Below, piece after piece: positions 1,514 to 58,045 of a stretch of DNA of 64,000 bases. Each line of letters begins with the position of its first letter. Within the stretch, counting starts at the first letter, position 1. This DNA comes from Candidatus Nealsonbacteria bacterium (GTDB lineage Bacteria > Patescibacteriota > Minisyncoccia > Minisyncoccales > MHMH01): contig JACOYH010000007.1 of assembly GCA_016181965.1 (NCBI GenBank), positions 7,110 to 71,109 of the forward strand, written 5' to 3'. A program made the position numbers and the translations under genes. The notes beneath the pieces are model-generated. The model was not told the origin of the DNA. It saw nothing but the letters and a program-made list of their open reading frames with translations, and did no database searches.

Positions 1514-1589
1514 AATATTGCAACATTATGTCACTTTTAAGTGGTTTTGTCTAATCAAAAGGCGACTTTATTGAGCCGCCTTTATTTTT

Positions 1590-1919
1590 CTAAAATCCTC
1601 TTAACCTGACCAATTTGGCCTTTAATTGTTCGTGAGCTTCGCTAGACACGGGGATGCCCTCCCCAAGCGCCTCGTCGAATTCTTTCAGCATGCCATGGGT
1701 AAGCTCTATTTCCCGCGCCGTTAGTTTCGCGAAGTCAGAGAAATTGCGCGGCTTTTGGAAGATATGTCTTTTGATATCCCAATCAGAAGCGATGCCGCCC
1801 GCGTCACTTCTTTGACTCGCTGTTCGGCAAAAGCCATCGCGCGCGACGGAAATCAGCCGTCCTTCTCTTGCCAGCGAGCCATGCGTAACAATATCGCGCA
1901 TCCCCTTAACGCGTCTCAT
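1590..1919 (-). CDS. hypothetical protein, no family recognised; visibly more G+C-rich than its neighbours
   Basis: The ORF-track entry 1590..1934 starts at TTG; the first ATG is at 1919 (MRRVKGMRDIVTHGS...). The overlapping + ORF 1755..1937 looks like frame noise. Confidence 0.35.
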   Translation of the reverse strand: MRRVKGMRDIVTHGSLAREGRLISVARDGFCRTASQRSDAGGIASDWDIKRHIFQKPRNFSDFAKLTAREIELTHGMLKEFDEALGEGIPVSSEAHEQLKAKLVRLRGF

Positions 1920-2005
1920 AATGTGCCCCCGCAATAGGAAGAATCTCTAATATTCCAATATCATAAACTACGCACATCAACAAATATCAATGCGCAAGAA
2001 GTAAA

Positions 2006-2842
2006 TTACCCCAACAGCATTTCTGCTTGATTTATTAAATGCTGGATATCGCTTACTGGCACTCTGTGCTTTTTGGCAAATTTTGCGGCGTTAATGCCCA
2101 GCAAGTCCCTAACGAGCATCGTCTTCTCTTTGGCAAAAATATCTTTTAGGTATGGTTTCAAGGATGGCAAAATTGTTATGGGATAAAGCTTTTCTTCGTC
2201 TATAATATGCTCCAAACCGTTGTTTTCCGGATAGTTCCAACCCAAAAGCTCAACTCCTGCGCAGCGGCAATAATCCAGAGCCCGGCCGCTGAATTTGGTG
2301 TTGGTTACCAGCATTGGCTTCAAAATGAAGCCCTTACCTCTGTCCGACTTAAAATAACTGCCGTTTGAAATATCTAAAAAACGGGCATAGTTGGCCAAAG
2401 CTTCTTGCGAATGGACCCTGTCGCCAAAATATCGCCTATATTTGCACTCCCCCACATAAATTTCTTTTTCTTTTTTGGCGACAAAGTCAATCTCGTAACT
2501 GCGCACGCAACGACCCGGCAAAAATTGGTTTATTTTTACTTCGTAGCCCAGATTGCTTAAAATTTCTCCGGTATATTTTTCAAAAGGAAAACCGGTGGGG
2601 CCGAGTTTCCTCATACCATCTTTAATATTGAATTTCAGAGCGATGACTGGCGCTTCTTTTCGGAGCAGGCCTTTTATTTTTCTGAAGATTTCAGCTGTTT
2701 TTATGCCGGGATAGATCTCTTTAGCGATAGTGCCGGCAATCGTTCGGGCGGCCGTGTCGGAAGCGCCGGCTCTTTTAGCCGAGCGATAGAGCTTTTTTTG
2801 GGAAAACGGCTCTTTCTCTCCCCTAGAATTGACAATATACAT
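2006..2842 (-). CDS. ATP-cone domain fused to a PD-(D/E)xK (Mrr-cat-like) restriction-endonuclease-fold domain
   Basis: The N-terminus MYIVNSRGEKEPFSQKKLYRSAKRAGAS..IAKEIYPGIKTAEIFRKI resembles an ATP-cone. The central YEIDFVAKKEKEIYVGECKY fits a D..(D/E)xK nuclease core. Confidence 0.6.
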   Translation of the reverse strand: MYIVNSRGEKEPFSQKKLYRSAKRAGASDTAARTIAGTIAKEIYPGIKTAEIFRKIKGLLRKEAPVIALKFNIKDGMRKLGPTGFPFEKYTGEILSNLGYEVKINQFLPGRCVRSYEIDFVAKKEKEIYVGECKYRRYFGDRVHSQEALANYARFLDISNGSYFKSDRGKGFILKPMLVTNTKFSGRALDYCRCAGVELLGWNYPENNGLEHIIDEEKLYPITILPSLKPYLKDIFAKEKTMLVRDLLGINAAKFAKKHRVPVSDIQHLINQAEMLLG

Positions 2843-2848
2843 TCGCCC

Positions 2849-3646
2849 CTAATTAATTTCGTAAGTAATGGTTACGGTAACTTCAATTTTATTCTCGCCG
2901 GTTTCTACTCGGGGAACATCTGGCATGCCGCTACCCATACTTATTTGCTCTAGCCCATACAAGAATACAGGGGCGGGAAATTCAGATTCTGAAAAGTTTA
3001 TGATCTTATTGAGATTGACTCCGAGCTGCGAAGACAACTCTTTTGCTTTATTTTTAGCCTCATCAATCGCCATTTTCCTTGCCTGATTTTTCAATTCATC
3101 TTCATTATCAACGCTGAACTGCAAACCAGAAACATCGGTTGCTCCCATATCAGTAGCAGATTGTATAATATTGCCGGTCTTTTCTAAATTTCTGATTTTT
3201 ACCCGTAGGGACTGATAGACCTCGTAGCCCACTAAAATCCTTTCGCCGGATGGACATGGATAATTAATGCATGTCTCTAAATCCAGCCACTCATAACGTG
3301 GAGAAATATTGAAGCTTGTTGTTTCTAAGTCCTTGCCATCAACGCCCAAATTCTTCGTGGCATCAATAATAGCGTTCATCTTTTTAGTATTTTCAGACAT
3401 GGCTTCCGCGACAGTTGTGGCCTCGTTTTGCACAGCAAAAGTTATCAACGCCAAATCGGGTTTGATAAAGACCTCTCCGGTTCCGGTAAACGATATGTTA
3501 TTTGACACTTCGGGCGCTTTACTCACAAAAATGTCTTTAGCAAATGAGATCGACATGATGAGCAGTAGCAAACTCGCCGATAGCAATAACGGAATAACAA
3601 AAAAGCATTTTTTTTCTGTAATATTCTCAAAAATTTTTAGACACAT
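2849..3646 (-). CDS. SIMPL-domain (DUF541) secreted protein
   Basis: N-terminal membrane anchor, then ISFTGTGEVFIKPDLALITFAVQNEATTVAEAMSENTKKMNAIIDATKNLGV and a C-terminal VETGENKIEVTVTITYEI, typical of the SIMPL family. Confidence 0.65.
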   Translation of the reverse strand: MCLKIFENITEKKCFFVIPLLLSASLLLLIMSISFAKDIFVSKAPEVSNNISFTGTGEVFIKPDLALITFAVQNEATTVAEAMSENTKKMNAIIDATKNLGVDGKDLETTSFNISPRYEWLDLETCINYPCPSGERILVGYEVYQSLRVKIRNLEKTGNIIQSATDMGATDVSGLQFSVDNEDELKNQARKMAIDEAKNKAKELSSQLGVNLNKIINFSESEFPAPVFLYGLEQISMGSGMPDVPRVETGENKIEVTVTITYEIN

Positions 3647-4536: not shown

Positions 4537-4561
4537 GTGTTAGACATTGAATGTCTAACAC
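4537..4561. repeat. Palindrome family P3, copy 1 (GTGTTAGACAT tga ATGTCTAACAC)
   Basis: Perfect 11-bp arms with a 3-nt centre, 13 nt upstream of the GerMN ATG. The same arms recur at 58705..58729. Confidence 0.85.
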
Positions 4562-4645: not shown

Positions 4646-4698
4646 CTTTACCGAGGACTGTCCTTGCCAGATTCTGGCAAGGACAGTCCTCGGTAAAG
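4646..4698. repeat. 53-nt perfect hairpin/palindrome (25-bp arms, 3-nt loop) just after the AlkD-like gene stop
   Basis: ctttaccgaggactgtccttgccag att ctggcaaggacagtcctcggtaaag. No U-tract follows on the minus strand. Confidence 0.85.
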
Positions 4699-5537: not shown

Positions 5538-6584
5538 TTAACTGAATTGCCCGATGATTTTATCGATTAAATTATTTAAGTTATGGTGCTTAACTACGAT
5601 TTCTCTTCTTAATTGAGGATCTGCGGGGGCTGTCATTAGATTAGTAATTTTATCGGCTAAATCATTGGCATTGCCTTTTTCAAAAATGTATTTATCGGCC
5701 AGAATTTTTTTATAGGCCTCGTTGCAGGTTAAAACAAGACAGCCCGCAGCCATGGCTTCCAGCACTACTTTATCCAAACTGCCGGTTGAGCTGGGGTTAA
5801 CAAATAAATCGGCCTCTTGATAATATTCTGGCATTTTGGCGTGAGGCGCGCCGGCCAAAAACTCTATATGTTCGTTTAGTTTATAATTTTTAGCTTGCTC
5901 TTTCAGGTCAGCCAGATATTTTTTTTCTGACTCTACGAGAGGTGTGCCCATAATTTTTAAGTTGATGTTGCAGACCTTTCTTTGGTTAACTAAAATATTC
6001 ATTGCTTCAATAAGAGTGGCGTGGCCCTTAACTGGCACGAGACGCGCCGCATATAACAAGCGGAAGGATAGAAGCCCGGCTTCCCGCGGAAGCCGGGCCT
6101 CTTGAACCGGCCGGAAAAGTTCGGTGTCTATTCCCTGTCCCAGCGCTTCTATTTTTTTGCTCGAAAGCCGACAGCCATCGGGCGAGGAAGTTACAATGTT
6201 GTCCACCAGTTTTTCTGCTATTTTCAGCTTAAGAGGCGTGGCTCCGTGCGCATACCATAAAATCAATTTTTTCCCGAAAATCTTAGCCAAAGGAAAGCTG
6301 GCGATAGCGAAAACAGGCCCCATATGAACATAAACGCCTCTGGCTTCCGATAAATGCGCGAGCAAAAATTTCTGCAACCTCCAGAGCTGCCTTATTTTAG
6401 AATAGCCCCTTTCTTTTCCCAAAGATAAAACCTTAATATTTTTGGGCAAATGATGTTCGCCCTCCGAAAGACAAATAGCGTAAACCTCATCTAACCGTTC
6501 TGAAAACTTTTCCAGCGTGCGATAAAAAAAGCTAAGGTTGTCGTCGTTGATATCTATTTTCTGGACAATGATAATCAGCTTCAT
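5538..6584 (-). CDS. glycosyltransferase family 1 (GT4-type, GT-B fold)
   Basis: C-terminal VNPSSTGSLDKVVLEAMAAGCLVL (E-x7-E region). The stop overlaps the next gene's start. Carries palindrome P1 copy A. Confidence 0.8.
   Translation of the reverse strand: MKLIIIVQKIDINDDNLSFFYRTLEKFSERLDEVYAICLSEGEHHLPKNIKVLSLGKERGYSKIRQLWRLQKFLLAHLSEARGVYVHMGPVFAIASFPLAKIFGKKLILWYAHGATPLKLKIAEKLVDNIVTSSPDGCRLSSKKIEALGQGIDTELFRPVQEARLPREAGLLSFRLLYAARLVPVKGHATLIEAMNILVNQRKVCNINLKIMGTPLVESEKKYLADLKEQAKNYKLNEHIEFLAGAPHAKMPEYYQEADLFVNPSSTGSLDKVVLEAMAAGCLVLTCNEAYKKILADKYIFEKGNANDLADKITNLMTAPADPQLRREIVVKHHNLNNLIDKIIGQFS
6071..6101. repeat. Palindrome family P1, copy A, in-frame inside the GT4 gene
   Basis: gaaGCCCGGCTTCCcgcGGAAGCCGGGCctc, translated on the minus strand as EARLPREAGL. 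Confidence 0.85.
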
Positions 6585-7588
6585 TGATTGATCATTCTTA
6601 GATAATTATCTATATATTTCTCGTTAGAAAAATTTTCTTTGATAATTTCGCGCCCCTTCTGTCCCATTTCAATCGCCAGTTTTTCGTCGTTCAGCAGGAT
6701 TCGCAGCTTTTCAGCCAGCTCTTTTGAATTAGCAACTTCAAATAAAAAGCCGGTCTGCCCGTCTTTCACTAAGTCAGGAATGCCTCCAACATTGCTTGCC
6801 ACTACCGGCTTTCCAAGCGCCATCGCCTCCAGAATTACCCTCGGCAACCCCTCGGTTATGGAGGGCACAACCAAACAATAGCAGTCCTTCATTTTTTTCC
6901 TTGTTTCTTCTAACGGCAATTTCCCAGCAGGCAGCCCTTCGCCCACCATCACAAGCTCAAAGCCAGGGAAATCGGACCTGATAAGTTCATAGGCCTCCTC
7001 AAGATATTTTATACCCTTAACCACGTCTTTCCTGCCGACAAAAAGAATATATTTTTGAAAACTGGTGTTTTCTTCTTTTAAAAAATCATCTAAATCGGTA
7101 AAAGTTGGGAAAAGATAATATGCTTTATCCGGAGATATTTTTTTCGCTTTCGCTATAAGATAATTGGCCACTCCCCTAACCTTATCGGCGTTCTTTAAAG
7201 AAATTGGCGCTATTTTTGATAGATTCTTCTTAAAACCCCAGTCGCCGTGCAATTCGACGATTAATTCCTTGCCAAGTATCTTCTTTAAGATTGTCCCAAC
7301 TAAGCCCTCGACAAGCGGCCCTTGGCAAACGACCGTATCCATTTTTTTTGTCAGGCAAATCCAAAAAGCGGCAACAAAAGCCAATGGCCAGTAAAAAATT
7401 CCCGCTGGCAATAGCAAAAAATCCGCGCCCCATTTTCTCTGGCTGCAAAATCCTCCCTTGGCAAGCACGTAAGGCGCAATTCCCTTTGACAGGCCTGCCT
7501 GCGCAGACAGGCCTTCGAACTTTTTTTGCAAATGCAAATCGCTCGCCAAATTGTATTTAGTTACTCCAAGAAATAAAACTTTTTTCAT
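6581..7588 (-). CDS. glycosyltransferase family 1 (GT4-type)
   Basis: VVPSITEGLPRVILEAMALGKPVVASNVGGIPDLV. The ORF-track start at 7603 is TTG; the ATG at 7588 gives MKKVLFLGV. Confidence 0.8.
   Translation of the reverse strand: MKKVLFLGVTKYNLASDLHLQKKFEGLSAQAGLSKGIAPYVLAKGGFCSQRKWGADFLLLPAGIFYWPLAFVAAFWICLTKKMDTVVCQGPLVEGLVGTILKKILGKELIVELHGDWGFKKNLSKIAPISLKNADKVRGVANYLIAKAKKISPDKAYYLFPTFTDLDDFLKEENTSFQKYILFVGRKDVVKGIKYLEEAYELIRSDFPGFELVMVGEGLPAGKLPLEETRKKMKDCYCLVVPSITEGLPRVILEAMALGKPVVASNVGGIPDLVKDGQTGFLFEVANSKELAEKLRILLNDEKLAIEMGQKGREIIKENFSNEKYIDNYLRMINQ
7491..7514. repeat. 24-nt near-perfect palindrome inside a GT4 gene
   Basis: aggcctgcctgc gcagacaggcct with one mismatched pair, encoding GLSAQAGLS. 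Confidence 0.7.
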
Positions 7589-8627
7589 GTTCTTTAACAA
7601 CATCGTTCCAAGTATAATTCATGGGGATTTTCTTTATTTTCTCAACATAATCCGCGTAATTTTTCTCATCCAAAAGATATAAAATCTTTCTCTCTAAATC
7701 AGCCCCGTCTCTCGGATCTATTAAAATCAAACTATTTCCAACGGTATCCAGGCCGGTTTCTTTAGTCAGCAAAACTGGCTTTCCCATGGCCAGACATTCC
7801 AAAGCAAAATTGGGGGTAATTTCGGTGAGCGAGGGCAGTACGCAAATATAACTTCTGCCCATCTCTGCCATTAATTCTTGATGTGGCAGAGGAGACGCAA
7901 AAGTTACCTTGTCATATTTTATTAGATTTGTTTTTTCCGGCCCTTCGCCGATTATTTTGAGCGTTAACGGTTTGTCTGTTTTTGACAAGACATTATAGAA
8001 TACTTTGATTAAAAATTCCAGGTTCTTCAGTTTCAAAAGCCGCCCCGCGTATAGAATCTTGTAGTTTTCTGGCGTCGTTTGCAAAGGCGCTTCTTTGGCC
8101 TCGGGAAAGGGATTTTTTATGATGACTGTTTTCTCTGGCCTAAAGCCGTAATGTTTAAAATATATTTGCCGCTGAAAATCGCTTGTAAAAATTATTTTGT
8201 CGGTACTCTTGAGGATTTTTCCGATAATAAACATCGTTAACCTTTCTCGCAACGTTTTTACGGAACTCTCGTAGTATTCCCGTAAAGTTTGTTCGATTCT
8301 GCCTTGCTCCACCGCTCTTTCCCACAAAAAGTCGCCGCCGAGCCGTATGAAAAATCGTTTTCTCAAGATTTTACCGCAAAAGCAGGCGGGTATGCCGCAG
8401 CTTATGGCATTAAAAGCATAAATGGCATCCGCCCCCAAAGACGCTTTCAGGAGATTAGCGACATAGCAGGCAATTCTTAATGGCTGAGGAATTTTTCTAA
8501 GGTTGCCGTAAGAAACAACGGTTGTAGAAATTCCCCTGCCCTCAAATCCTTGCTTGAGTTTTTGGGCATATGTTGCCGGGCCCCCAATATCTGGCGGGTA
8601 AATTGGCGTGGCTAAAACAATTTTCAT
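7557..8627 (-). CDS. glycosyltransferase family 1 (GT4-type)
   Basis: MKIVLATPIYPPDIGGPATY... and VLPSLTEITPNFALECLAMGKPVLL. Confidence 0.8.
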   Translation of the reverse strand: MKIVLATPIYPPDIGGPATYAQKLKQGFEGRGISTTVVSYGNLRKIPQPLRIACYVANLLKASLGADAIYAFNAISCGIPACFCGKILRKRFFIRLGGDFLWERAVEQGRIEQTLREYYESSVKTLRERLTMFIIGKILKSTDKIIFTSDFQRQIYFKHYGFRPEKTVIIKNPFPEAKEAPLQTTPENYKILYAGRLLKLKNLEFLIKVFYNVLSKTDKPLTLKIIGEGPEKTNLIKYDKVTFASPLPHQELMAEMGRSYICVLPSLTEITPNFALECLAMGKPVLLTKETGLDTVGNSLILIDPRDGADLERKILYLLDEKNYADYVEKIKKIPMNYTWNDVVKEHEKSFISWSN

Positions 8628-9709
8628 CTTTTTACTTTTTGATAAATATCATATACCCTATTGGCGATATTTTGCCAGTTATATTTTGGCAAGACATTTT
8701 TTGCATTTTCAACCAGCATTTTGGCAAAATCAGGGTTGGATTGAATCTTGAATAAGGCCTCGCTAATTTGGCCAACATTGCCCGGCTCAACCAAAAGGCC
8801 GGTTTTCTGGTCTTCAATCAAGTCCAAAATACCTCCTACCCCGCTGGCAACAACCGGCAAGCCAGCGGCCTGCGCTTCCAAAACAACAATGCCAAAACCC
8901 TCTTGAATAGAGGGCAGAACAAAACAGTCGGCCATTGCCAAGTAAAAAGGAATTTTTTCATTGGGAATTTCTCCGAGAAATTCCACGCTATCTTCTGATT
9001 TTAATTGTTTAACTAAATTCTCAAGGTCCTTTCGCCTACTACCATCGCCGATAACCATTAACTCACTTGGTTGACACCTGGTGTCAACCAACGCTCTTAT
9101 TAAATATTCCACTCCCTTGACTTTTTCTAATCGGGCCACCGTAATGACAATAAACTTCTCGCGGGGCTGTCTCTTGATGTTTTCAAATCTCGATAGGTCC
9201 ACTCCGTTGGGAATAACTGCAACCTTTTTTACACCTATGTCTTCAAAATTTTTCTTGACGGCCGAAGAAGCGGCAATACAAAAAGCGGCTTTTCTGTAAA
9301 TAAAATTTTTCAAAGGATTTCTTTTCTTTTCGAGCCGTTGAACGGTAGTAATATAGGGAACTCTTGTTACGACAGAGAGGCAAAAACCCAGAAAGCTGCT
9401 TAGAAAACCTTGGCAGTGTAAAATATCAATTTTCTCTTGCCGCATTAAAATTAATGATTTCAGGAAAATACAGGGCAATAGGGAAACGGTATAGATTTTA
9501 GGGGAACGCGACAAATCAGATAAGGTAAAAAACGAAGTCCGGAAAATGCGCAATCCGCCTGCGGCCTCCTTGTTGGGCCGATTCTTTACCCTGCCTGTCA
9601 CCACGAAAACCTCGGCTTTTTTGGAAACATTCTCGGCAATATTGCGGGTCCATGTCTCAATGCCTCCAACAACCGGATAATAATGAAGCGCCGGCATCAA
9701 TATTTTCAT
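8624..9709 (-). CDS. glycosyltransferase family 1 (GT4-type)
   Basis: MKILMPALHYYPVVGGIETW... and VLPSIQEGFGIVVLEAQAAGLPVVASGVGG. Carries palindrome P2 copy 1. Confidence 0.85.
   Translation of the reverse strand: MKILMPALHYYPVVGGIETWTRNIAENVSKKAEVFVVTGRVKNRPNKEAAGGLRIFRTSFFTLSDLSRSPKIYTVSLLPCIFLKSLILMRQEKIDILHCQGFLSSFLGFCLSVVTRVPYITTVQRLEKKRNPLKNFIYRKAAFCIAASSAVKKNFEDIGVKKVAVIPNGVDLSRFENIKRQPREKFIVITVARLEKVKGVEYLIRALVDTRCQPSELMVIGDGSRRKDLENLVKQLKSEDSVEFLGEIPNEKIPFYLAMADCFVLPSIQEGFGIVVLEAQAAGLPVVASGVGGILDLIEDQKTGLLVEPGNVGQISEALFKIQSNPDFAKMLVENAKNVLPKYNWQNIANRVYDIYQKVKR
9067..9091. repeat. Palindrome family P2, copy 1, in-frame inside a GT4 gene
   Basis: TTGGTTGACACC t GGTGTCAACCAA, 12-bp perfect arms, encoding VDTRCQPS on the minus strand. 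Confidence 0.85.
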
Positions 9710-15278: not shown

Positions 15279-16439
15279 ATGAAGGAAAAAACAAACCAAA
15301 TTTCTAATGGGGTGAAAAGGGTCTTATTTTTGGTTACTCAATCGGAAATGGGGGGCGCCCAGAGGTATATTTTTGAGTTGGCGCGCGGTCTGGATAAGCA
15401 AAAATACGAAATTTCAGTTGCCGCCGGCGAAGGAGACGGAGAATTATTTGAAAGGATTGCGCCCCTGCAAGTCAAAACGCACCAACTAATAAATCTTAAA
15501 CGCGCGCCAAATCCCTATCTCCTTATTGCTGCGGTCGTGGAGATAAGGAGATTGCTTAAAAAAGAAAAGCCGGATGTCTTGTTTCTGTGCTCCACCACGG
15601 CCGGATTGCTCGGCTCTATCGCAGCTATTTTCTTGCCCGCAAAAGTAGTATACAGAATTGGCGGCTGGGCATTCAGGGATCCGCGGACTTTTTGGAAGAA
15701 TTGGCTGATTTTGCTCGCAGAGAAGATGACTGCTCCCCTTAAAGATAGAATCATTGTCAATTCGGAAATTGATCGTAATTTAGCTATAAAATACAAAATT
15801 GCTCCGCCGGGGAAAATAATCAAAATCTATAACGGCATTGACCCGGATTCTTTAAACTTTTTAAGCCAACAAGAAGCCCGGAACCGGTTGACACCAGGTG
15901 TCAACCAAGGTGTCAACCAAGTCGTGGTTGGAACGGTGGCAAATTTTTATAAAACCAAGGGATTAGAATATTTAATCGAGGGCTTCGCGAGGTCCGACCT
16001 CGCCAAAGGCGGGTCAAATCTCATTATCATCGGCGAGGGGCGAGAACGGCCGAAACTGGAAACCTTAATTAAAAAACATAAGATAGAGGATAAAGTCATT
16101 TTAGCTGGACGTCTGCCTGACGCTTACAAATACTTGAAGGCCTTTGATGTTTTCGCGCTTCCCTCCCTAAAAGAGGGCTTTCCTTGGATAATTCTAGAGG
16201 CAATGGCCGCTGAAGCGCCGATTGTCGCTACTAAAGTCGGCGCTCTGCCAGAGATCATTGATGACGCTAAAGAAGGATTTTTAGTAGAGCCGAAAAATAG
16301 CAAGGCCTTGGCTGAAAAAATAAAATGGGCGTTAGAACATCAGCAAGAAGCCAAAGAGATGACCGCTCGAGCCAAAATAAAAGTTCTCGCTCGATTTTCT
16401 CTCTCTAAAATGATTGAGGCCACTCAAAATGAACTCTAA
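15279..16439 (+). CDS. glycosyltransferase family 1 (GT4-type)
   Basis: ALPSLKEGFPWIILEAMAAEAPIVATKVGALPEI. Transcribed divergently from the 5538-15140 operon. Carries palindrome P2 copy 2. Confidence 0.85.
   Translation: MKEKTNQISNGVKRVLFLVTQSEMGGAQRYIFELARGLDKQKYEISVAAGEGDGELFERIAPLQVKTHQLINLKRAPNPYLLIAAVVEIRRLLKKEKPDVLFLCSTTAGLLGSIAAIFLPAKVVYRIGGWAFRDPRTFWKNWLILLAEKMTAPLKDRIIVNSEIDRNLAIKYKIAPPGKIIKIYNGIDPDSLNFLSQQEARNRLTPGVNQGVNQVVVGTVANFYKTKGLEYLIEGFARSDLAKGGSNLIIIGEGRERPKLETLIKKHKIEDKVILAGRLPDAYKYLKAFDVFALPSLKEGFPWIILEAMAAEAPIVATKVGALPEIIDDAKEGFLVEPKNSKALAEKIKWALEHQQEAKEMTARAKIKVLARFSLSKMIEATQNEL
15886..15920. repeat. Palindrome family P2, copy 2, with a tandem duplication of one arm, in-frame inside a GT4 gene
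   Basis: GGTTGACACC a GGTGTCAACC aa GGTGTCAACCAA, encoding PGVNQGVNQ. Confidence 0.85.
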
Positions 16440-20885: not shown

Positions 20886-20953
20886 TATTTTATTATACCA
20901 TTATGTCAGCATGATGTCAGGATGTCCGGCACCCCTCAATTCTGTACTTGTTA

Positions 20954-21007
20954 GGTCTGTTAGAGCCAGGCTCTAACAAGCTTGTTAGAGCCTGGCTCTA
21001 ACAGACC
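20954..21007. repeat. 54-bp perfect palindrome centred on ACAAGCTTGT
   Basis: ggtctgttagagccaggctctaacaag|cttgttagagcctggctctaacagacc. An extra taacagacc copy follows at 21011-21023. Confidence 0.9.
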
Positions 21008-21026
21008 TGCTAACAGACCTAACAGA

Positions 21027-26204: not shown

Positions 26205-26276
26205 ATCGGATATCGATTGTCTATTATAGTTATGACGGAAAAGAAGATATTTTGTTACACCAATATCCAGCCATCG

Positions 26277-26330
26277 TTTGTGATAGGCCGGGCTTATCAC
26301 AAGCTTGTGATAAGCCCGGCCTATCACAAA
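26277..26330. repeat. 54-bp perfect palindrome centred on ACAAGCTTGT, between the sigma and anti-sigma genes
   Basis: tttgtgataggccgggcttatcacaag|cttgtgataagcccggcctatcacaaa. Confidence 0.9.
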
Positions 26331-26349
26331 CAAACCGCTTATTACAAAC

Positions 26350-27884: not shown

Positions 27885-28445
27885 ATGAGAAAAATAATTA
27901 TTCTCTTGGTTGTTTTAGGCCTCGCCGGCGCGGGCTTTTTTTATTGGTGGAACAATCAAGCAGATGTCAGGGAACTGAATAAAACCCTGCCCACAGGCGT
28001 AAGAATAGAAAAAAGCTTATTCGGCAATGAATATAAAGTAGTGAATAAGATTGATGGCTACTCGTTTAAAGTACCGCCAGAGTGGGAGGGGTTGGAGGAA
28101 GTTGAGTATATACCGGAAAGAGAAGAGTTAGGGTATGTAGGAAGTAGTCTGAATTTTAATGGCAAGGAGAAAGGCATCATAGGCGTTGCTATCGATCGCT
28201 TCACTGCCGGCGGGGATATGAGTATGGATTTAGAATCTTGGACGAAATTAGAGTTTGATGCCTTTGAATTAGTAGGAGATTTTAGTAAAGATAAGATTGG
28301 GACATTAGATATAGTAAAGACACAAGAGAACGTCCACTTCGCGGGTGAATATATATATTATCTAAAAAAAGACCAAATTATATACTCTCTCACGAGTCCT
28401 GCAAAAGGGTATATTGAATACATTATCACTAATGGACAATGGTAA
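27885..28445 (+). CDS. membrane-anchored hypothetical protein
   Basis: MRKIIILLVVLGLAGAGFFYWW anchor. 7-nt overlap with the downstream giant gene. Confidence 0.55.
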   Translation: MRKIIILLVVLGLAGAGFFYWWNNQADVRELNKTLPTGVRIEKSLFGNEYKVVNKIDGYSFKVPPEWEGLEEVEYIPEREELGYVGSSLNFNGKEKGIIGVAIDRFTAGGDMSMDLESWTKLEFDAFELVGDFSKDKIGTLDIVKTQENVHFAGEYIYYLKKDQIIYSLTSPAKGYIEYIITNGQW

Positions 28446-31400
28446 AAGCCATAAAATCTATAGGGGGTAAACTATCTTTGCAAAAGACGATTTTAACGAT
28501 TGCCATAGCCGCAATCGTTTTTTCTTTCTTGTCCAATTATTCTTTGGCCGGCCAAACAAAAGTCAACCAGCAAGAAATGCAAAGAATCAAACAGGGCTTG
28601 GATATTGTTAAAACAGCTTCAAGTTTCGGAAGCGTTCTTCTTGACGATGGCGGCTTAATGAAAGCGCTCAACACGGTTATCAAGGGCGGCAGCGCGGCCA
28701 CGGATGTCACCTACGGCCTGCTTGTCTTGAGCGCCGTCAACGAAATGGAACTAATGGATTTGGTGCTTTCGCAGGAGTATAAAACAATAGAAAGAGAATA
28801 TTTTGAACAAATTTTAGACGAGAGGACCAATTTAATATCTTATTGGAGAGGAGTTGGTTTTGACTTGCCCAAAGTGCTCTCTGGACAGATTACCGGCCCC
28901 ATGGCTGGCTTAACTTTAAACAGCTTTGCTATGACCAACAAAATTATCCATATTGCCACCGCGTTTGAAGTGTTAAAAAAAGGCCAACTGTATGATGGCC
29001 TATGGTATTACTTTGATTTAAGAAAAAATAGCAATGAGCCGCATGAAATAGCTTGGCGCGAAGCAAAAATGATACTTGGTTTTGCGACTAATTCAGTGGG
29101 ATTTCACGGACCAACACAAAGACAGAATAAAAGAATCGAGCTCGAAGCTCAATTCACATCCCTTTGGGATAAATGGGGGCTATACGCCACGCCAGGAGGC
29201 ATCAGTAATCAGTATCAAGAACAAGCAAAAGAGGAAATGAGAAGCATGCTGGCCGTGGCAGCTGAAACGCAAAGGTTAGCTGAAATAGAAAAACAAAAAG
29301 AACCATCTTGGCTATCAAAACAAATAGATGAACTCAAAACACTCGCGTCAGGCCTTGGAGAAAAAATTCACACTATGGTCTCCAAGATCGCCGACGCCAA
29401 TCCCTTTAGCGCCGGCCCAATTGTCCAATCGCCAAAAGATACACCGGTGGCACCGGTGCGAAATTCGGCCGGGCTTCAGAGCCCCAAAAACCGAGAATCA
29501 GAAGACCAAACCCCGACAGAAAGAGGCGAAGAAGCCCGGCTTCCTCGGGAAGCCGGGCTTCAGGTTCCACGAGAGGTCCCACGAGAGGTCAAACCTCAAG
29601 CGCCTCAAGAGATTGAAAGTGAAAAGACAACAGAGGAGAAAGTGAAAGATAAAGAGGTCCGAGAAGAGGAAAAAATTAAAATAGTCGAGATCAAACCCAC
29701 GCCAGATGAGCCGGGACTTTGCGAGAAAATTGCCGGGGACTTGCCTAAAAGATATAGGGCTTTCATTAACGAGGTGGCCTGGATGGGCAGTCAAAATTCG
29801 CCAAATGACGAATGGATTGAGCTGAAAAATATTTGGGGCTTACCCGTCAATCTTAACGGCTGGCAATTACAAGACAAAGACCAGCAAATAAAAATAATTT
29901 TTGAAGAAAATGATACTATTCCGGCCAGCGGATATTATCTTTTAGAAAGGACAAATGATGACTCAACGCCCAAAGCCAAGGCCGACAAAATATACACGGG
30001 CGCTTTAGGCAATAACAATGAGGCCTTATATTTATTTGATAATGACTGCCGATTGGAAGACGAAGTTATAGCCGATCCCAGTTGGCCAGGCGGCGACAAT
30101 ACCGCTAAAAAAACAATAGAACGGCTGGATCCCTTATACTGGTACACAAGCGCTTCTATAGGGGGCAGCGCCGGAAAAAACAACGGCACGCCTCCGGCAA
30201 TTTTAAAGCACCCCAGCGCGCCAACTCCCCCTTTGCCTGCTTCAGCGCCGACTTATCTTACAATTTTGATTGACGAAGTCAGAATTGATGGCGATGGAAA
30301 TATCAAAAACGATTCCGTTAAACTCTACAATCCCAACGATACGGCGGTTGATTTAACAAATTGGTATTTGCAAAGGAAAACAGCGAACTCTTCCGTATTC
30401 TCAACTTACGCGCCAAAATCGCTTTTTGCCGGAAAATCCATTGAGGCAAACGGATACTTTTTAATTGCTCACGCTTCTTCAACGTTCGCTACTTCCGCAG
30501 ACGCCATCACAACTTACTCTCTGACTCGAAATAATACCCTCGTCTTAAAAAATCCAAATGGTGAAATAGCGGACACGGCGGAGCCAGCAGAAAATAACGA
30601 AGAAACGGCGTCGTTATCGGTTGTTATCAACGAAATCGCTTGGGCAGGCGCTAAGGCCAATTCTGCCGATGAGTGGATTGAACTTTACAACAACACTACT
30701 TCAGGTATTGATTTGACTAATTGGTCAATTTTGAAAGATGACGAGGAATGGATTATCTTTTCCACCTCAAGCATCGTCTCGCAGGGATATTATTTATTGG
30801 AAAGAAGCGACGATCAGACAATCAGCGATATTACGGCCGACCAATTTTTTACCGGCGCTCTAAGCAACAGCGGCCAAAAATTAGAATTAAAAAATGCAGC
30901 CGGTGACTTAATGGACTTAATTGATTTTTCTTCTAATTGGCCAGCCGGCGAAGCCGCCCCAAACTATCTTTCAATGGAAAGGATATCTTCTACTTTCAGC
31001 GATTGGGCTAGCAATAATCGAATCTCAACAAACGGCTTGGGTAGCGGCAATAATGCCATCAACGGCACGCCGAAAGAAAAAAATAGCGTTTCGAAGTCCT
31101 TCACAGAAGTTGTCGGCGATCGCGTATTTTCAGACGACTTTACGCTTACAAAACTTGGCAGTCCTTATATTTGGGAGGGCTCCCTTATCATGGAGCAGGG
31201 GACTAAATTAACCGTCGAACCCGGCGTTACCGTAAAATTCAAGCACACTGCCCCTAACCAGCCCCACGCTCAAGTAAAAATAAAAGGCGAGATGGAGGCC
31301 ATTGGAACAAACGAGCAAGAAATAACTTTTACGTCTTTTCAGGAAAATAATTATTGGGACGGGCTTTATTTTGAGAATTCAAATTCTACTCTTGAAAATG

Positions 31401-32446
31401 TCATCATCGATTATGCCGGCAAATGGCACCATAGCGGCGCAAACGAGTTTCCCCCCTATACTTACGGGGCGATATACATAGATGGCGGAACGGTCAGCAT
31501 AAAAAACTCTCTAATTCAAAACAGCGAAACCTTCGGGGTATGGCTGAAAAATTCTCCCTTAAGCTTGATAGACGGGACGACCTTTAAGGCAAATCCTGGC
31601 ACCGTAGAAAAGCCGGCGGCGATTTATGTTGAACAGGGCAATCCGACCATTCAAAATTCTAATTTTGAAGATAATAACATTGGGATTTTCGCTGCGAATT
31701 ACTCAACGCCCGCAATCACCGACAACAGTTTTAACGGCAACCAAGCGCCCGTGAAAATAAGCTCGCTTTTTACAGACATTTCCGACAACATCGCGCAGAA
31801 CAATGATATCAACGGAATTTTACTTGAAGCTTTTGGTTTTAATGGAGAAACCAGCGAAGTCGCGTGGCAAAAAAACGATTTGCCCTATGTTGTTGAGAGC
31901 GCCCTTGATGTTGCCGCTGGAAAAATACTAGAAATAGAATCGGGCGTCGTCGTGAAGTTCAAGGGAGAAGGGGCAATAAATATAGGCGGTACGCTAAATG
32001 CGAAAGGTAAAAATAATGATAAAATAATTTTTACTTCTATCAGCGATGACGAATACGGGGGCGACACAAATAACGACGGCAATGCGTTTCCGCCCGCAGC
32101 CGGGCAATGGAAATTTCTTAAGTTCTTGAACTCCAGCGCGGAGGCATCTTTAGACAATGTTCTCGTGAGATACGGAGGATTTCTCGGAATAAGAGGCGGC
32201 GTTAGTGCGCGCGATGGGGCAATTAAGATTGAGAACAATACGCTCACCATCAAGGATTCTATTATTGAAAACAATCGGGTGGGGATTGAAATGATTAATT
32301 CTGATTTTGACGGGAAAAGCAAAAATATTTCCGTTAGGAATAATGCCATAGGAGTATACGTTGAGGGCGCCTGCCCAAATCTAAACGATATTATTTTCGA
32401 ACAGAATACGGAATACGATATTTTTCCAATTGACTGCCAAAACTAA
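28439..32446 (+). CDS. 1335-aa secreted protein: N-terminal helical region, P/E-rich linker, three lamin-tail (LTD) domains, C-terminal right-handed beta-helix repeats
   Basis: LTD signatures INEVAWMGSQNSPNDEWIELKN, LIDEVRIDG...VKLYNPN and INEIAWAGAKANSADEWIELYNN. The C-terminus has repeated ..I.NS.I.NN..GI.. units. Confidence 0.75.
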   Translation: MVKAIKSIGGKLSLQKTILTIAIAAIVFSFLSNYSLAGQTKVNQQEMQRIKQGLDIVKTASSFGSVLLDDGGLMKALNTVIKGGSAATDVTYGLLVLSAVNEMELMDLVLSQEYKTIEREYFEQILDERTNLISYWRGVGFDLPKVLSGQITGPMAGLTLNSFAMTNKIIHIATAFEVLKKGQLYDGLWYYFDLRKNSNEPHEIAWREAKMILGFATNSVGFHGPTQRQNKRIELEAQFTSLWDKWGLYATPGGISNQYQEQAKEEMRSMLAVAAETQRLAEIEKQKEPSWLSKQIDELKTLASGLGEKIHTMVSKIADANPFSAGPIVQSPKDTPVAPVRNSAGLQSPKNRESEDQTPTERGEEARLPREAGLQVPREVPREVKPQAPQEIESEKTTEEKVKDKEVREEEKIKIVEIKPTPDEPGLCEKIAGDLPKRYRAFINEVAWMGSQNSPNDEWIELKNIWGLPVNLNGWQLQDKDQQIKIIFEENDTIPASGYYLLERTNDDSTPKAKADKIYTGALGNNNEALYLFDNDCRLEDEVIADPSWPGGDNTAKKTIERLDPLYWYTSASIGGSAGKNNGTPPAILKHPSAPTPPLPASAPTYLTILIDEVRIDGDGNIKNDSVKLYNPNDTAVDLTNWYLQRKTANSSVFSTYAPKSLFAGKSIEANGYFLIAHASSTFATSADAITTYSLTRNNTLVLKNPNGEIADTAEPAENNEETASLSVVINEIAWAGAKANSADEWIELYNNTTSGIDLTNWSILKDDEEWIIFSTSSIVSQGYYLLERSDDQTISDITADQFFTGALSNSGQKLELKNAAGDLMDLIDFSSNWPAGEAAPNYLSMERISSTFSDWASNNRISTNGLGSGNNAINGTPKEKNSVSKSFTEVVGDRVFSDDFTLTKLGSPYIWEGSLIMEQGTKLTVEPGVTVKFKHTAPNQPHAQVKIKGEMEAIGTNEQEITFTSFQENNYWDGLYFENSNSTLENVIIDYAGKWHHSGANEFPPYTYGAIYIDGGTVSIKNSLIQNSETFGVWLKNSPLSLIDGTTFKANPGTVEKPAAIYVEQGNPTIQNSNFEDNNIGIFAANYSTPAITDNSFNGNQAPVKISSLFTDISDNIAQNNDINGILLEAFGFNGETSEVAWQKNDLPYVVESALDVAAGKILEIESGVVVKFKGEGAINIGGTLNAKGKNNDKIIFTSISDDEYGGDTNNDGNAFPPAAGQWKFLKFLNSSAEASLDNVLVRYGGFLGIRGGVSARDGAIKIENNTLTIKDSIIENNRVGIEMINSDFDGKSKNISVRNNAIGVYVEGACPNLNDIIFEQNTEYDIFPIDCQN
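29531..29561. repeat. Palindrome family P1, copy B, in-frame in the linker of the LTD protein
   Basis: GAAGCCCGGCTTCC tcg GGAAGCCGGGCTTC, 14-bp perfect arms, encoding EARLPREAGL. Confidence 0.9.
29565..29588 (+). repeat. 12-nt tandem duplication (VPRE VPRE) immediately 3' of P1 copy B
   Basis: ttccacgagagg tcccacgagagg. Confidence 0.85.
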
Positions 32447-35845: not shown

Positions 35846-35932
35846 CACCGTAATTTAACAAAAAAACTTCAAAAAATCAACCCCGCATTATGCCCCTTAT
35901 CTTACATAGTCTTACAGAAGCCGCCACTCAAT

Positions 35933-35958
35933 ACTACTATACTACATAGTATAGTAGT
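35933..35958. promoter_or_regulatory. 26-bp AT-rich palindrome, site 1 of 3 (candidate operator)
   Basis: ACTACTATACTA ca TAGTATAGTAGT, 103 nt upstream of the clpB ATG and 60 nt after the NDT-like gene stop. Confidence 0.6.
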
Positions 35959-36017
35959 GTTTAGTGCCGCCCTTGGCGACTATTTCTACGTTTTATAGAA
36001 AGCATCGTGGGGATTTT

Positions 36018-36431: not shown

Positions 36432-36504
36432 ATTCTTATGACCCGAGAGCCTTTATATTTTTCACCGATCCCGTAGGAATAATGTTATCCCGATTAATTA
36501 CAAT

Positions 36505-36530
36505 ACTACTATACTACATAGTATAGTAGC
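36505..36530. promoter_or_regulatory. 26-bp palindrome, site 2 of 3
   Basis: ACTACTATACTA ca TAGTATAGTAGc, 1 nt after the regulator's stop codon and 74 nt upstream of the NDT-like ATG. Confidence 0.6.
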
Positions 36531-36531
36531 A

Positions 36532-37022: not shown

Positions 37023-37054
37023 AACACTACTATACTATATAGTATAGTAGTGTT
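37023..37054. promoter_or_regulatory. palindrome site 3 of 3, here a perfect 32-bp palindrome abutting the regulator's -10 box
   Basis: aacACTACTATACTA ta TAGTATAGTAGTgtt. On the minus strand a TATAAT (37023-37018) follows directly, 15 nt before the ATG at 37002. Confidence 0.65.
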
Positions 37055-54805: not shown

Positions 54806-55273
54806 ATGAAACTAATCATCGGCTTGGGCAATCCCGGCAAAAAATACGAAAAAACGCGGCACAACTTCGGCTTTTTGGCTATAGACGAACTGCAAAAGCA
54901 AACGCCGAAAGACGCTATTTTACTGAAGCCCGACACTTTTATGAACAAATCGGGCAAAGCCGTTAAAGAAAAAGCGGCCTACTATAAAATAAAGCCGCAA
55001 GATATTTGGGTTATTCACGACGATATTGATTTGCCGTTAGGAGAGTATAAAATTTCCCGCGGACAGGGCTCGGCCGGGCACAAGGGCGTCCAATCAATTA
55101 TAGACGAACTCGGCACTAAGGATTTCAATAGAATTCGTCTTGGCATTTGCCCGGCCTCGGGCAAGCCCTCCAATGTAGAGGACTTTGTTTTGCAAAAGTT
55201 CACCGCCGAAGAAGAAAAAATCATTACTGGGGCTCTTGACTTATTAAGGTCTGACTTCAACAAACTAAACTAA
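54806..55273 (+). CDS. pth: peptidyl-tRNA hydrolase (short, 155 aa)
   Basis: MKLIIGLGNPGKKYEKTRHNFGF...KPDTFMNKSG...HDDIDLPLG...GHKG. Confidence 0.9.
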   Translation: MKLIIGLGNPGKKYEKTRHNFGFLAIDELQKQTPKDAILLKPDTFMNKSGKAVKEKAAYYKIKPQDIWVIHDDIDLPLGEYKISRGQGSAGHKGVQSIIDELGTKDFNRIRLGICPASGKPSNVEDFVLQKFTAEEEKIITGALDLLRSDFNKLN

Positions 55274-55986: not shown

Positions 55987-57987
55987 ATGGAAAAGTCAAC
56001 CCTAGACCGGGTTTTAATCGTTGGCATCACCCCCTACTTCTTGGAAAGGGAGAATTTTTGGTTTGAAGAAAACCTGCAAAAGATATTAACGGCGAGAAAA
56101 ACCCAGTCGTTCTTTGAAGATAATATTGTTTTTTTAGAAAAGGGCAGTGATTTCAATTTTTCGCGGCTGCTCCGGCAACTTGACGAAATGGGCTATGAAA
56201 TAGTGCAAGAAGTCGCGGAACCCGGCGAAATAGCAAGGCATGGCGGCACGATTGACATTTTTCCGGTCAACTTAAATCGGGCCGTTAGAATTAATTACTT
56301 CGGCAACAAGATTGAAGAAATAGAACAATCAAATACTTGTGTTAGCGATGAAAAAAAAGACAAAGAACGGCTGAAGAAAAAACTAAAGAATCAAAAAATA
56401 TATTCCCAATTGCAAGGCCTAAAGCCGGGCGATTTTTTGGTGCACCTAGACCACGGCATCGGGCTCTTGACGGGGATAACTGGAAGTCCGGCTTCCGCGG
56501 GAAGCCGGACTTCCTCGTTTCCGTTTCCGCAGAAATATTACGTTTTAGAATATGCCTCGGGCGATAAATTATATGTGCCGCTGGGCCTTGAGAGAAAACT
56601 TTCGCGCTATGTCGGCTTTATTAATCCTAAAATTTCCCGGTTGAGCGCGCCGACTTGGTTGAATACGAAAAGGAAAGTCAAAGAGGAAACCGAAAAGTTA
56701 GCCGCAGAGCTTCTGGAAATATACGCTCAACGAGAAGTGGCTCGGCGCCAGCCCTACAGCCGCGATTTTGAAATGGAAGCGAAAATTCAAGAGACGTTTG
56801 CCTATCTTGAAACACCCGATCAGGCGCAGGCAACAAATGACATTGCCAAGGACCTTGAAGAGTCGGAAATGCCTATGGACAGGATTGTCTGCGGGGACGT
56901 TGGTTTTGGCAAAACAGAAATCGCCCTAAGGGCTGTCATTAAGGCGGTAAGCAACGGCAAGCAGGCGGCCATGATTTGCCCCACCACTATTTTGGCTTCA
57001 CAGCACTATCAAAACTTCACCCACCGGCTGAACAATCTGCCAGTCAAAATCGCGCTGATAAGCCGCCTGCAATCTAAAAGCGAACAAAAAACAATTGCCG
57101 GACAATTAAAGGCGGGGGAAATAGACATTGCCATTGGCACTCACCGGCTGCTTTCTGCCGATATTGCATTTAAGAATTTGGGCATGCTCGTTATCGACGA
57201 CGAGCAGAAATTCGGCGTGGAGCAAAAAGAGCGTCTCAAAAGAATCCGGCCGCAGTTAGATATTCTCTCGCTGTCGGCTACGCCCATTCCCCGCACTCTT
57301 TATTTTGCTCTCTCATCGCTAAAGAATATCAGTATTGTTAAAACGCCTCCGCCGGAACGGTTGCCTGTTGAGACCTTTATCAAACCACGCTCGGAAAAAA
57401 TTATCCGGCGGGCAATTGAGGCGGAAATCACCAGAGGAGGCCAGGTTTATTATTTGCACAACCGAGTTGCCACCATTGAAATGGTTAAAAAATCTTTGGC
57501 GGAAAAATTCCCCCATCTGAATGTTGGCGTTGTTCACGGCAGAATGAATGAACCGGAAATGGTGTCGGTCATGCGCGATTTCAAAGAAAAAAATATTGAT
57601 GTGCTCGTAGCCACCACTATTATTGAAAACGGCATAGACCTCTCCAACGCCAATACTTTGGTTGTGGCCGATGCCGCCAAACTCGGCTTGGCGCAGGCGC
57701 ACCAAATCAGGGGCAGAGTGGGTCGCTCAAATGTTCGGGCCTTTGCCTATTTTCTGCATTCGGGCAAATTAAACGATTTAGCAAAAAGGCGCCTGCAAGC
57801 GCTCAAAGAGGCGCAAAATCTTGGGTCGGGCTATAAAGTCGCCCTGCAAGATATGGAAATACGAGGGGCAGGCAATATTCTCGGCAAAGAACAATCGGGC
57901 AGTGTCAATCAAGTGGGTCTGAATTTGTACTGTCAGATGTTAAGCGAAGTGATTGAAAAACTGAAAACTGCCAAACCTGCCCCGTAA
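55987..57987 (+). CDS. mfd: transcription-repair coupling factor Mfd, shortened (666 aa)
   Basis: UvrB_inter-like N-terminus (GEIARHGGTIDIFP), CarD_TRCF/RID (LKPGDFLVHLDHGIG...YVLEYASGDKLYVPL), and SF2 motifs GDVGFGKTE, DDEQKFG, SATPIPRTL. No visible D2 or D7 regions. Confidence 0.85.
   Translation: MEKSTLDRVLIVGITPYFLERENFWFEENLQKILTARKTQSFFEDNIVFLEKGSDFNFSRLLRQLDEMGYEIVQEVAEPGEIARHGGTIDIFPVNLNRAVRINYFGNKIEEIEQSNTCVSDEKKDKERLKKKLKNQKIYSQLQGLKPGDFLVHLDHGIGLLTGITGSPASAGSRTSSFPFPQKYYVLEYASGDKLYVPLGLERKLSRYVGFINPKISRLSAPTWLNTKRKVKEETEKLAAELLEIYAQREVARRQPYSRDFEMEAKIQETFAYLETPDQAQATNDIAKDLEESEMPMDRIVCGDVGFGKTEIALRAVIKAVSNGKQAAMICPTTILASQHYQNFTHRLNNLPVKIALISRLQSKSEQKTIAGQLKAGEIDIAIGTHRLLSADIAFKNLGMLVIDDEQKFGVEQKERLKRIRPQLDILSLSATPIPRTLYFALSSLKNISIVKTPPPERLPVETFIKPRSEKIIRRAIEAEITRGGQVYYLHNRVATIEMVKKSLAEKFPHLNVGVVHGRMNEPEMVSVMRDFKEKNIDVLVATTIIENGIDLSNANTLVVADAAKLGLAQAHQIRGRVGRSNVRAFAYFLHSGKLNDLAKRRLQALKEAQNLGSGYKVALQDMEIRGAGNILGKEQSGSVNQVGLNLYCQMLSEVIEKLKTAKPAP
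56482..56514. repeat. Palindrome family P1, copy C, exactly 11 codons inside the Mfd RID domain
   Basis: GGAAGTCCGGCTTCC gcg GGAAGCCGGACTTCC, 15-bp perfect arms. Starts at a codon boundary and encodes GSPASAGSRTS. Confidence 0.9.
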
Positions 57988-58019: not shown

Positions 58020-58045
58020 AAAAAGTTGAGGACAATGTCCTCAAC
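58020..58045 (-). terminator. Rho-independent terminator of paralogue 2
   Basis: Minus-strand guugaggac auu guccucaac followed by U5. Confidence 0.65.

Follow-up and report, generated by a model that had tools for sequence, protein, structure and literature searches.

The window analysed here is a 64,000-nt (64 kb) stretch of contig JACOYH010000007.1 from Candidatus Nealsonbacteria bacterium, and its subject is P1, a short GC-rich palindrome that occurs three times in this stretch, each time within a long open reading frame (ORF) whose frame is kept. The genes concerned code for a glycosyltransferase, a large protein with LTD domains and a helicase related to Mfd, in which the insert falls in the RNAP-interacting domain (RID). 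Hosts and copies are arranged as follows.

5538..6584, minus strand: GT4-type glycosyltransferase of 348 aa (MBI2042627.1; Pfam Glycos_transf_1), host of copy A.
6071..6101, minus strand: P1 copy A, GAGGCCCGGCTTCC-GCG-GGAAGCCGGGCTTC on the coding strand, encoding EARLPREAGL (residues 162-171) in the GT4 interdomain linker.
28439..32446, plus strand: protein of 1335 aa with three LTD domains and a beta-helix/NosD region (Pfam LTD, Beta_helix), host of copy B.
29531..29561, plus strand: P1 copy B, GAAGCCCGGCTTCC-TCG-GGAAGCCGGGCTTC, encoding EARLPREAGL in a P/E/K-rich linker of the LTD/beta-helix protein.
55987..57987, plus strand: short Mfd-like helicase of 666 aa (MBI2042672.1; Pfam UvrB_inter, CarD_TRCF_RID, DEAD and Helicase_C), host of copy C.
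56482..56514, plus strand: P1 copy C, GGAAGTCCGGCTTCC-GCG-GGAAGCCGGACTTCC, encoding GSPASAGSRTS in the RID loop of the Mfd-like helicase.

An earlier note on this DNA had described the element as a palindrome with a centre of always 3 nt, and an inverted-repeat search returns the sequences and coordinates that it quoted: copy A at 6070-6102 with 15-nt arms at 93%, copy B at 29531-29561 with 14-nt arms at 100%, and copy C at 56482-56514 with 15-nt arms at 100%, all with a 3-nt centre. Pfam domains and long ORFs agree with its statement that the three in-frame hosts are unrelated, and the ORF translations agree that copies A and B, on opposite coding strands, are read in one and the same frame. 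Copy C, which is read in another frame, departs from both at one compensated pair (C-G to T-A); the peptides of all copies are 10-11 residues long. The same 31 nt are translated in more than one frame and from either coding strand, so that what is inherited as a unit is the hairpin in the DNA and not the peptide. The GC content of P1 is ~70%, against 44% for the genome and a range of 40-51% in the window.

P1 is built from two inverted copies of a 13-nt unit, GAAGYC-N-GRCTTC, separated by a C-NNN-G spacer. The doublet measures 31-33 bp and has a perfect or near-perfect stem of 14-15 bp. The arms of copies A and B are palindromic in their own right, each 13 nt long around a single central base (GAAGCC-C-GGCTTC and GAAGCC-G-GGCTTC). 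These central bases, C in one arm and G in the other, complement each other, which identifies an inverted pair of units and not a tandem duplication. The arms of copy C are only near-palindromes, and full pairing is reached just in the long arm-to-arm hairpin; as the C-G to T-A change leaves this hairpin perfect but disrupts both small sub-hairpins, it is the long form that has been preserved. Folding predictions put it at -17 to -21 kcal/mol when it is DNA and at -31 to -35 kcal/mol when it is RNA, the z-scores being -4 to -7. None of the six reading frames of P1 contains a stop codon; stops are present in most of the window's longer palindromes between genes.

With up to 3 mismatches allowed, the full P1 pattern has exactly three sites in the window (copies A, B and C) and 0.00 in 100 dinucleotide-preserving shuffles, which bears out, for the window, the excess over chance that the earlier note had presumed. 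Elsewhere, the core GYCCGGCTTCC-N3-GGAAGCCGGRC was found at 27 loci, one each, in reference genomes (185,579 species, 596 Gb) and at 61 loci, single copy each, in a metagenome collection. Nearly all of these matches lie in GC-rich genomes or at one recurrent gut-bacterium locus, some of them (e.g. L014, L042) in A/T-flanked, terminator-like settings. No multi-copy genome for this core was encountered among the 185,579 reference genomes or in the metagenome collection. The P1 stem is an 'easy' hairpin that has had independent origins elsewhere; three copies per 64 kb are a genuine family.

P1 peptides occupy loops or linkers, as the earlier note had expected. When the GT4 protein is modelled by AlphaFold2 from an alignment of 78 sequences (mean pLDDT 93.9), the sole low-confidence block is residues 161-170 (pLDDT 55). 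This block corresponds to the palindrome-encoded peptide and forms a coil between strands 145-147 and 174-179, in the interdomain linker. Aligned to the RID of solved Mfd structures (6ac6, 2eyq), the Mfd peptide coincides with a gap, and the peptide of the LTD protein belongs to a P/E/K-rich stretch that is unalignable among homologues of 44-53% identity, so that copy B is not polarisable. The coding density of this genome is ~93%; the presence of all three copies in genes is therefore roughly as predicted and is no evidence of gene preference. Directly 3' of copy B (29562-29600), a 12-nt tandem repeat (GTTCCACGAGAG/GTCCCACGAGAG) encodes the peptide VPREVPRE.

The most informative comparisons come from Mfd, for which the 60 closest orthologues were aligned and pattern matching recovered the loop from 116 of the top 120. 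The length of the RID loop is highly variable among the 60. The closest orthologue (P0002, locus L091, 75% identity) reads GLENKYY and has no palindrome, i.e. an empty site. Other relatives have hairpins of their own in the loop. L089 (66% identity) contains a hairpin with 23-nt arms and units GGAAGTC-C-GACTTCC, and L096 (genome JACPGX01, GCA_016188865.1; hereafter JACPGX) contains GAGGTCGGACCTCC-CAA-GGAGGTCCGACCTC, a 14-3-14 arrangement as in P1 that is read in the frame of copy C and starts 2-3 codons earlier. In L090 the centre of the loop palindrome GGTTCGACCTCCC...GGGAGGTCGAACC encloses a further palindrome, which suggests that hairpin centres are themselves points of insertion or growth; the nested element, in the Mfd gene at 999-3026, is GAAGAGGGT-AA-ACCCTCTTC. 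A diagnostic peptide pair (e.g. GRTS...GGPTS) is present in at least 8 of the 116 Mfd orthologues. By this comparison with the empty site of the closest orthologue, insertion is demonstrated for the Mfd copy only.

In the GT4 family, linker length and the codon positions of the element are identical in the window and in three orthologues, L095 (97% identity), L093 (79%) and L092 (66%, from JACPGX). The L093 copy is decayed (GAGGCCAGACCTCC-GAG-AGTGACCGGTCTTC), and the L092 copy, GAGGTTCGACCCCC-CGA-GGAGGTCAAACCTC, differs from that of the window by five compensated pair changes. The linker of L094 (77%) is shorter, AT-rich and without a palindrome. Because the site is palindromic in orthologues down to 66% identity, the GT4 copy must be either old or repeatedly renewed.

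Further hosts are known from relatives. In JACPGX, the DegT and TsaD genes have near-identical 42-nt hairpins (GAGGTCCGACCTCCCGTMA-tatt-...), and the DegT site filled there is empty in the window and in L093. The TopA gene of the same genome has a P1-like copy, GAAGCCCGGCTCC-N8-GAAGCCGGGCTTC, with the peptide EARLRRNEAGLL, in a loop that contains another palindrome in the window (59473-59497) and in L089; the palindromes of the latter two have the outer arms AATTGCC/GGCAATT in common and differ in their cores. Scans of the sequence collections with the P1 core also yielded one in-frame copy in a Nomurabacteria metagenome-assembled genome (MAG), in the TatD gene (GACGTCCGGCTTCC-TTG-GGAAGCCGGACGTC). 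Elements of relatives use all frames (KTSGFPRKPDV, RGRTSQGGPTS, EVRPPEEVKPR). Taken together, the Mfd site (empty or filled), the GT4 site (filled, decayed or absent) and the DegT site (filled or empty) establish that occupied and empty sites coexist among orthologues. The presence/absence polymorphism that the earlier note anticipated is thus found, with Mfd empty in L091 and the GT4 copy decayed in L093 and absent in L094.

The family that the note had named P1 does not stand alone: it is one branch of a GARGYC-N-GRCYTC doublet superfamily found across Nealsonbacteria. The window contains 7 GARGYC-N-GRCYTC units where 0.05 are expected, or 10 where 1.27 are expected if one mismatch is allowed, and ~85 kb of other Nealsonbacteria loci contain 11. 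No generalised doublet was found in 2.9 million viral contigs. In all, the 64 kb window contains 3 doublets, 1 solo unit and 2 degenerate units, where ~0 are expected. The units outside the doublets are listed here.

15989..16001, plus strand: solo unit GAGGTC-C-GACCTC within the palindrome 15984-16006, in-frame (ARSDLAK) in a loop of the GT4 paralogue 15279-16439.
29585..29597, plus strand: degenerate unit GAGGTCAAACCTC with 1 mismatch, in the same linker as copy B and 24 nt downstream of it.
55246..55258, plus strand: decayed unit AAGGTC-T-GACTTC at the 3' end of pth, orthologous to the palindromes flanking the Y1 gene of L091.

The second of these matches exactly the 3' arm of the JACPGX palindrome in GT4, and the linker of copy B looks like an accumulation zone for such repeats.

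When eight 31-nt doublets are aligned, 92.9% of the cells are paired and 6 of the 14 pairs have changed on both sides. This pairing and covariation is matched by 0 of 500 shuffles and collapses in slid registers. Three processes could produce compensated changes of this kind, namely selection acting on the hairpin, repair templated by the hairpin and substitution of one family member for another, and the data do not separate these. The window as a whole is rich in such structures, with ~21 distinct perfect palindromes having arms of at least 10 nt; the raw tally, in which one hairpin is counted per loop setting, is 59, and 30 dinucleotide shuffles average 0.9. Thirteen of the ~21 are intergenic, though less than 10% of the DNA is non-coding, and several form families. 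Within this larger set, P1 stands out as the GC-rich member that is fully compatible with coding.

The explanation favoured here, with somewhat better than even confidence, is that P1 is a miniature DNA repeat akin to the repetitive extragenic palindromes (REPs), their doublets (REPINs) and the Rickettsia palindromic elements (RPEs), copied between loci and tolerated in loops; its mobilisation by a Y1 transposase is a weaker part of this explanation. As single-stranded DNA or RNA, P1 would fold into a GC-rich hairpin of 14-15 bp and would be copied from one locus to another. In a genome that is ~93% coding, most new insertions would land in genes. The survivors would be in-frame insertions in permissive surface loops, those elsewhere presumably being lost, and in surviving copies the doublet and its flanks would add whole codons. 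The element would simply be translated as a flexible loop of 10-11 residues rich in Pro, Gly, Ser, Arg and Glu, and copies would later decay or disappear. The same reasoning has been established for RPEs and for intragenic REPs (PMC3733652). More tentatively, the copying enzyme may be a trans-acting, hairpin-specific HUH Y1 transposase of the type of the REP-associated tyrosine transposases (RAYT/TnpA-REP), encoded outside the window; an enzyme of this kind, acting on single-stranded DNA hairpins, is probably the best candidate for the copying step. Of the mobile hairpin proposed in the earlier note, the DNA-level identity is well supported, insertion is shown for Mfd, and copying between loci is what we infer from the identity of the sequences.

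The lead towards a Y1 enzyme comes from relatives. In L091 (1065-1769) and L096 (12074-12787), Y1_Tnp genes coding for proteins of 234-237 aa lie directly beside mfd. These proteins score above the Pfam threshold, and their sole NCBIfam match is the REP-associated tyrosine transposase. Both genes are flanked by their own double-hairpin palindromes (regions 12074-12817 of L096 and 1065-1850 of L091), and both also contain their own palindrome in-frame, read as QSYEASPRKI in one and VFKSDFNN in the other. The flanking family of L091, TTGTTGAAGTC-A-GACTTAAACAA, has a core GAAGTC-N-GACTTC that fits the unit consensus. In the window, the C-terminus of Pth (LLRSDFNKLN, 55237-55266) is encoded by a decayed unit of this flanking family, and in L091 (992-1038; 1780-1850) the intact doublet likewise codes for the C-terminus of Pth.

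Several points weigh against the favoured explanation. In agreement with the earlier note, no transposase was found in the 64 kb window by a Pfam screen of 30 ORFs, nor did tblastn of the window with two Y1 transposases of relatives give a match. The Y1 proteins of relatives score 35.8 and 17.4 bits, below the NCBIfam RAYT cut-off of 80, and the palindromes on either side of the JACPGX Y1 gene (AATCTTACGAGGC...) belong to another family than the abundant GAGGTCCGACCTCC. The tetranucleotides GTAG and CGTC are absent beside copies A, B and C on both strands. No transposition event or excision footprint has been seen for P1, of which only three copies are known, all from the 64 kb window and with peptides predicted from DNA. 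Finally, the fixed GT4 codon positions at 66% identity fit vertical inheritance with structure-preserving evolution, or functional selection, as well as they fit repeated insertion. The flanks of A, B and C contain no shared direct repeat and no shared source sequence; inspection by eye for a target-site duplication or a common flank motif gave only loose TTCC-containing right flanks, judged unreliable.

Comparison with known systems places P1 among translated palindromic repeats. RPEs are reportedly selfish elements (Ogata and co-workers, 2000) lying in-frame in functional protein genes, where they are tolerated in surface-exposed segments; RPE-1 has ~100-150 bp and 30-50 residues, and its host genome is reduced. 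P1 is similarly in-frame in ORFs of otherwise conserved proteins, in permissive surface segments. It is told apart by its length (31-33 bp) and its Nealsonbacteria host, and in different genomes its sites are found in the same loops again, each genome having its own sequence variants. The parallel with in-frame RPEs, drawn in the earlier note, is apt, as is that with in-frame REPs (PMC3733652), and the short RPE-4 and RPE-6 have themselves been classed as CGTC-tagged REPs (PMC3733652).

Like REPs and REPINs, which are GC-rich stem-loops of 20-40 bp present in dispersed copies and forming longer hairpins as inverted doublets, P1 is a hairpin doublet, with copies at three separate loci of the window. 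Its hosts in Nealsonbacteria include Mfd and TopA, as REP hosts include genes of DNA repair and replication, and relatives have single-copy Y1 transposase-like genes flanked by their own palindromes. REPINs measure roughly 70-110 nt, so that P1, with a unit of 13 nt and a doublet of 31-33 nt, is shorter. In addition, P1 has no GTAG/CGTC tag and its arms are perfect, whereas REP arms are bulged; the Nomurabacteria TatD copy does contain CGTC, but within the stem. The Y1 proteins of relatives, at ~235 aa, also differ from the NCBIfam RAYT model of 146 positions. REPs are GTAG- and CGTC-tagged, most carrying such a tetranucleotide (PMC3733652, PMC6006769), and REPIN doublets are moved by RAYT/TnpA-REP (PMC5581495, PMC6006769, PMC8266576). 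REPs are mainly extragenic, whereas the known P1 copies are all intragenic and in-frame; intragenic REPs are known exceptions (PMC3733652), documented as translated, with 20-30 residues read through and many in DNA repair genes (PMC3733652).

Mitochondrial genomes provide another parallel. GC-rich double-hairpin elements occur in fungal mitochondria, and mitochondrial palindromes resemble P1 as perfect inverted repeats in translated sequence, some with double-hairpin architecture. In Nematomorpha, mitochondrial coding palindromes reach up to 284 bp and both arms encode conserved protein regions (PMC6649704), whereas P1 is a dispersed repeat encoding a non-conserved loop, and the genetic systems are unrelated. 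Literature searches gave no report of in-frame palindromic elements or of RAYT/REP systems in the candidate phyla radiation (CPR), or Patescibacteria.

Among the alternatives, it is unlikely, though worth weighing, that the hairpins are selected cis-acting DNA or RNA elements instead of selfish repeats, with fixed positions and genome-wide co-evolution with a partner; the hairpins might bind a protein peculiar to the genome, direct the processing or stability of mRNA, or make translation pause where domains meet. Such a role would account for the GT4 codon positions being identical in orthologues from 66% to 97%, for the five compensated pairs between the window and JACPGX and for the strong covariation. 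It is also consistent with the placing of several sites at interdomain linkers and with loci within one genome being more alike than orthologous loci between genomes (GAAGCCCGGCTTCC in the window, GAGGTCCGACCTCC in JACPGX). However, close relatives show empty, decayed or otherwise filled sites and no trace of compensation, the position of the element in the Mfd loop shifts by 2-3 codons between genomes, and the host genes have no common pathway. There is neither a terminator-like T run nor an Rfam match, and hairpin-templated repair can maintain the symmetry of a palindrome without selection.

It is considerably less probable that each palindrome was made in place by template switching or inverted duplication, the likeness among copies being convergence under a mutational bias. 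Palindrome-free GT4 linkers are just 4-7 residues shorter, or about one arm plus centre; an arm of GGTTGACACC-N-GGTGTCAACC in a GT4 paralogue is tandemly copied, which points to local duplication; and the TopA palindromes of two genomes have like outer arms around different cores. Local origin nevertheless leaves unexplained how 28-31 identical nt came to be in three unrelated genes and two frames (chance expectation 0), and how the DegT and TsaD elements of JACPGX came to be near-identical over 42 nt; nor do the flanks of A, B and C offer a common source sequence. Template switching may account for the growth of some palindromes in this genome.

A peptide motif selected at the protein level, with palindromic DNA as a by-product, has next to no probability: the shared EARLPREAGL of copies A and B speaks for it, but copy C, where the same DNA is read in another frame, has an unrelated peptide, relatives use all frames, nucleotide changes are compensated and the GT4 peptide is predicted to be unstructured, so this motif is rejected. 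The same negligible standing applies to sequencing or assembly artefacts such as chimeric fold-back reads, which the origin of the sequence in a MAG and the ability of amplification chimeras to yield perfect palindromes might suggest: an independent Logan assembly (L097, run SRR12113430), 99.8% identical to the window over 8.5 kb, contains copy C unchanged, and the 97%-identical strain L095 (GCA_964650555.1), from another project, has copy A as a perfect 15-3-15 palindrome, from which the window differs by a single mismatch that is a synonymous GAA to GAG change. These two findings exclude an assembly artefact; like elements are moreover present in MAGs from many studies, with the reading frame intact in every copy.

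Known classes of element were considered as well. Intrinsic terminators resemble P1 in that a GC-rich stem, GCCCGGCTTCC-N3-GGAAGCCGGGC, occurs once each in many unrelated genomes. They are rejected, as no T run follows the P1 stems on the 3' side, all copies are mid-ORF and a terminator scan does not call the full hairpins; it gave weak calls for sub-stems of B and C only, at about the shuffle rate. A known structured RNA is rejected because no Rfam family reaches the gathering score anywhere in the window, and a tRNA-linked element because the window is without tRNA. Miniature inverted-repeat transposable elements, of 70-300 bp with terminal inverted repeats and target-site duplications, do not correspond to an element of 31-33 bp that is palindromic throughout and has no flanking direct repeat. 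An IS200/IS605 element, which would carry its own Y1 transposase between subterminal hairpins, is rejected in the same way, there being no ORF within or beside the P1 copies and no Y1 gene in the window.

Translated selfish palindromes have so far been known mainly from Rickettsia and a few REP-rich bacteria; here they would occur in CPR, as a much smaller element, and with comparative evidence that is rarely available: orthologous sites that are empty, filled, decayed and re-filled, compensated stems, and RAYT-like neighbours in relatives. Orthologous loops with hairpins are closer to the other copies of their own genome than to each other, which suggests ongoing renewal or concerted evolution. 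A broader and tentative proposal, less likely than not, is that Nealsonbacteria, and perhaps Parcubacteria more widely, host 'coding REPINs', i.e. elements adapted to ultra-compact genomes that are stop-free in every frame, re-occupy the loops of Mfd, TopA, GT4, TsaD and DegT and evolve in concert within each genome, so that orthologous sites bear a variant particular to each genome. If so, either a domesticated Y1 enzyme would still be renewing them or the hairpins would serve some function throughout the genome, and they would steadily supply length variation to the loops of otherwise conserved CPR proteins. Should the repeats be genome-wide, they would account for part of the loop-length variation of CPR proteins and for odd low-complexity peptides (GRTS, EVRPP, KSDF), would be relevant to annotation and alignment-based phylogeny of CPR lineages, and would offer a natural system for the persistence of hairpin repeats with almost no non-coding DNA.

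Other palindromes are found in the glycosyltransferase genes of the window. Two GT4 paralogues (9067-9091; 15886-15929 and 15984-16006) contain an in-frame GGTTGACACC-N-GGTGTCAACC, followed in the second by two tandem copies of GGTGTCAACCAA, and the loop between 'G.EYLI' and 'L.IIG.G' bears a different palindrome in each. A GC-rich palindrome at 7491-7514, AGGCCTGCCTGC/GCAGACAGGCCT, is in-frame (EGLSAQAGL) in the adjoining glycosyltransferase gene 6581-7603 and is kept in L095 (97%).

On either side of mfd lie two paralogous minus-strand ORFs without a Pfam match, 55321-55920 and 58050-58793, at spots where relatives carry NUDIX or Y1_Tnp genes. Their hydrophobic N- and C-terminal stretches suggest secreted or membrane proteins. 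The true start of 58050-58793 is probably further downstream, as its annotated 5' region overlaps two palindromes.

Several families consist of larger or intergenic hairpins. Two loopless perfect palindromes of 56 nt, at 20953-21008 and 26276-26331, are both centred on CAAGCTTG, and each of their arms is in turn palindromic around a single base, TGTTAGAGCC-a/t-GGCTCTAACA and TTGTGATAGGCC-g/c-GGCTTATCACAA; they form REPIN-like double hairpins between co-directional minus-strand genes. A second family, with the core CCGAGGAC-N-GTCCTCGG, comprises a 53-nt intergenic double hairpin (4646-4698), a terminator-like solo after mfd (58024-58046, TTGAGGAC-A-TGTCCTCAA) and the in-frame TopA copy at 59473-59497 (IAEDSPRQF), whose loop is filled otherwise in L089 (4456-4506) and L096 (13438-13471). 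The palindrome GTGTTAGACAT-N-ATGTCTAACAC occurs twice (4537-4561 and 58705-58729), upstream of or at the 5' end of minus-strand ORFs. Lastly, the AT-rich palindrome AATACTACTATACTA-ca-TAGTATAGTAGTGTT is present three times (35930-35961, 36502-36533 and 37023-37054), ~550 nt apart and each time between small minus-strand genes, one of them Trp-repressor-like; it looks like an operator or promoter element and not like a member of the GC-rich family.

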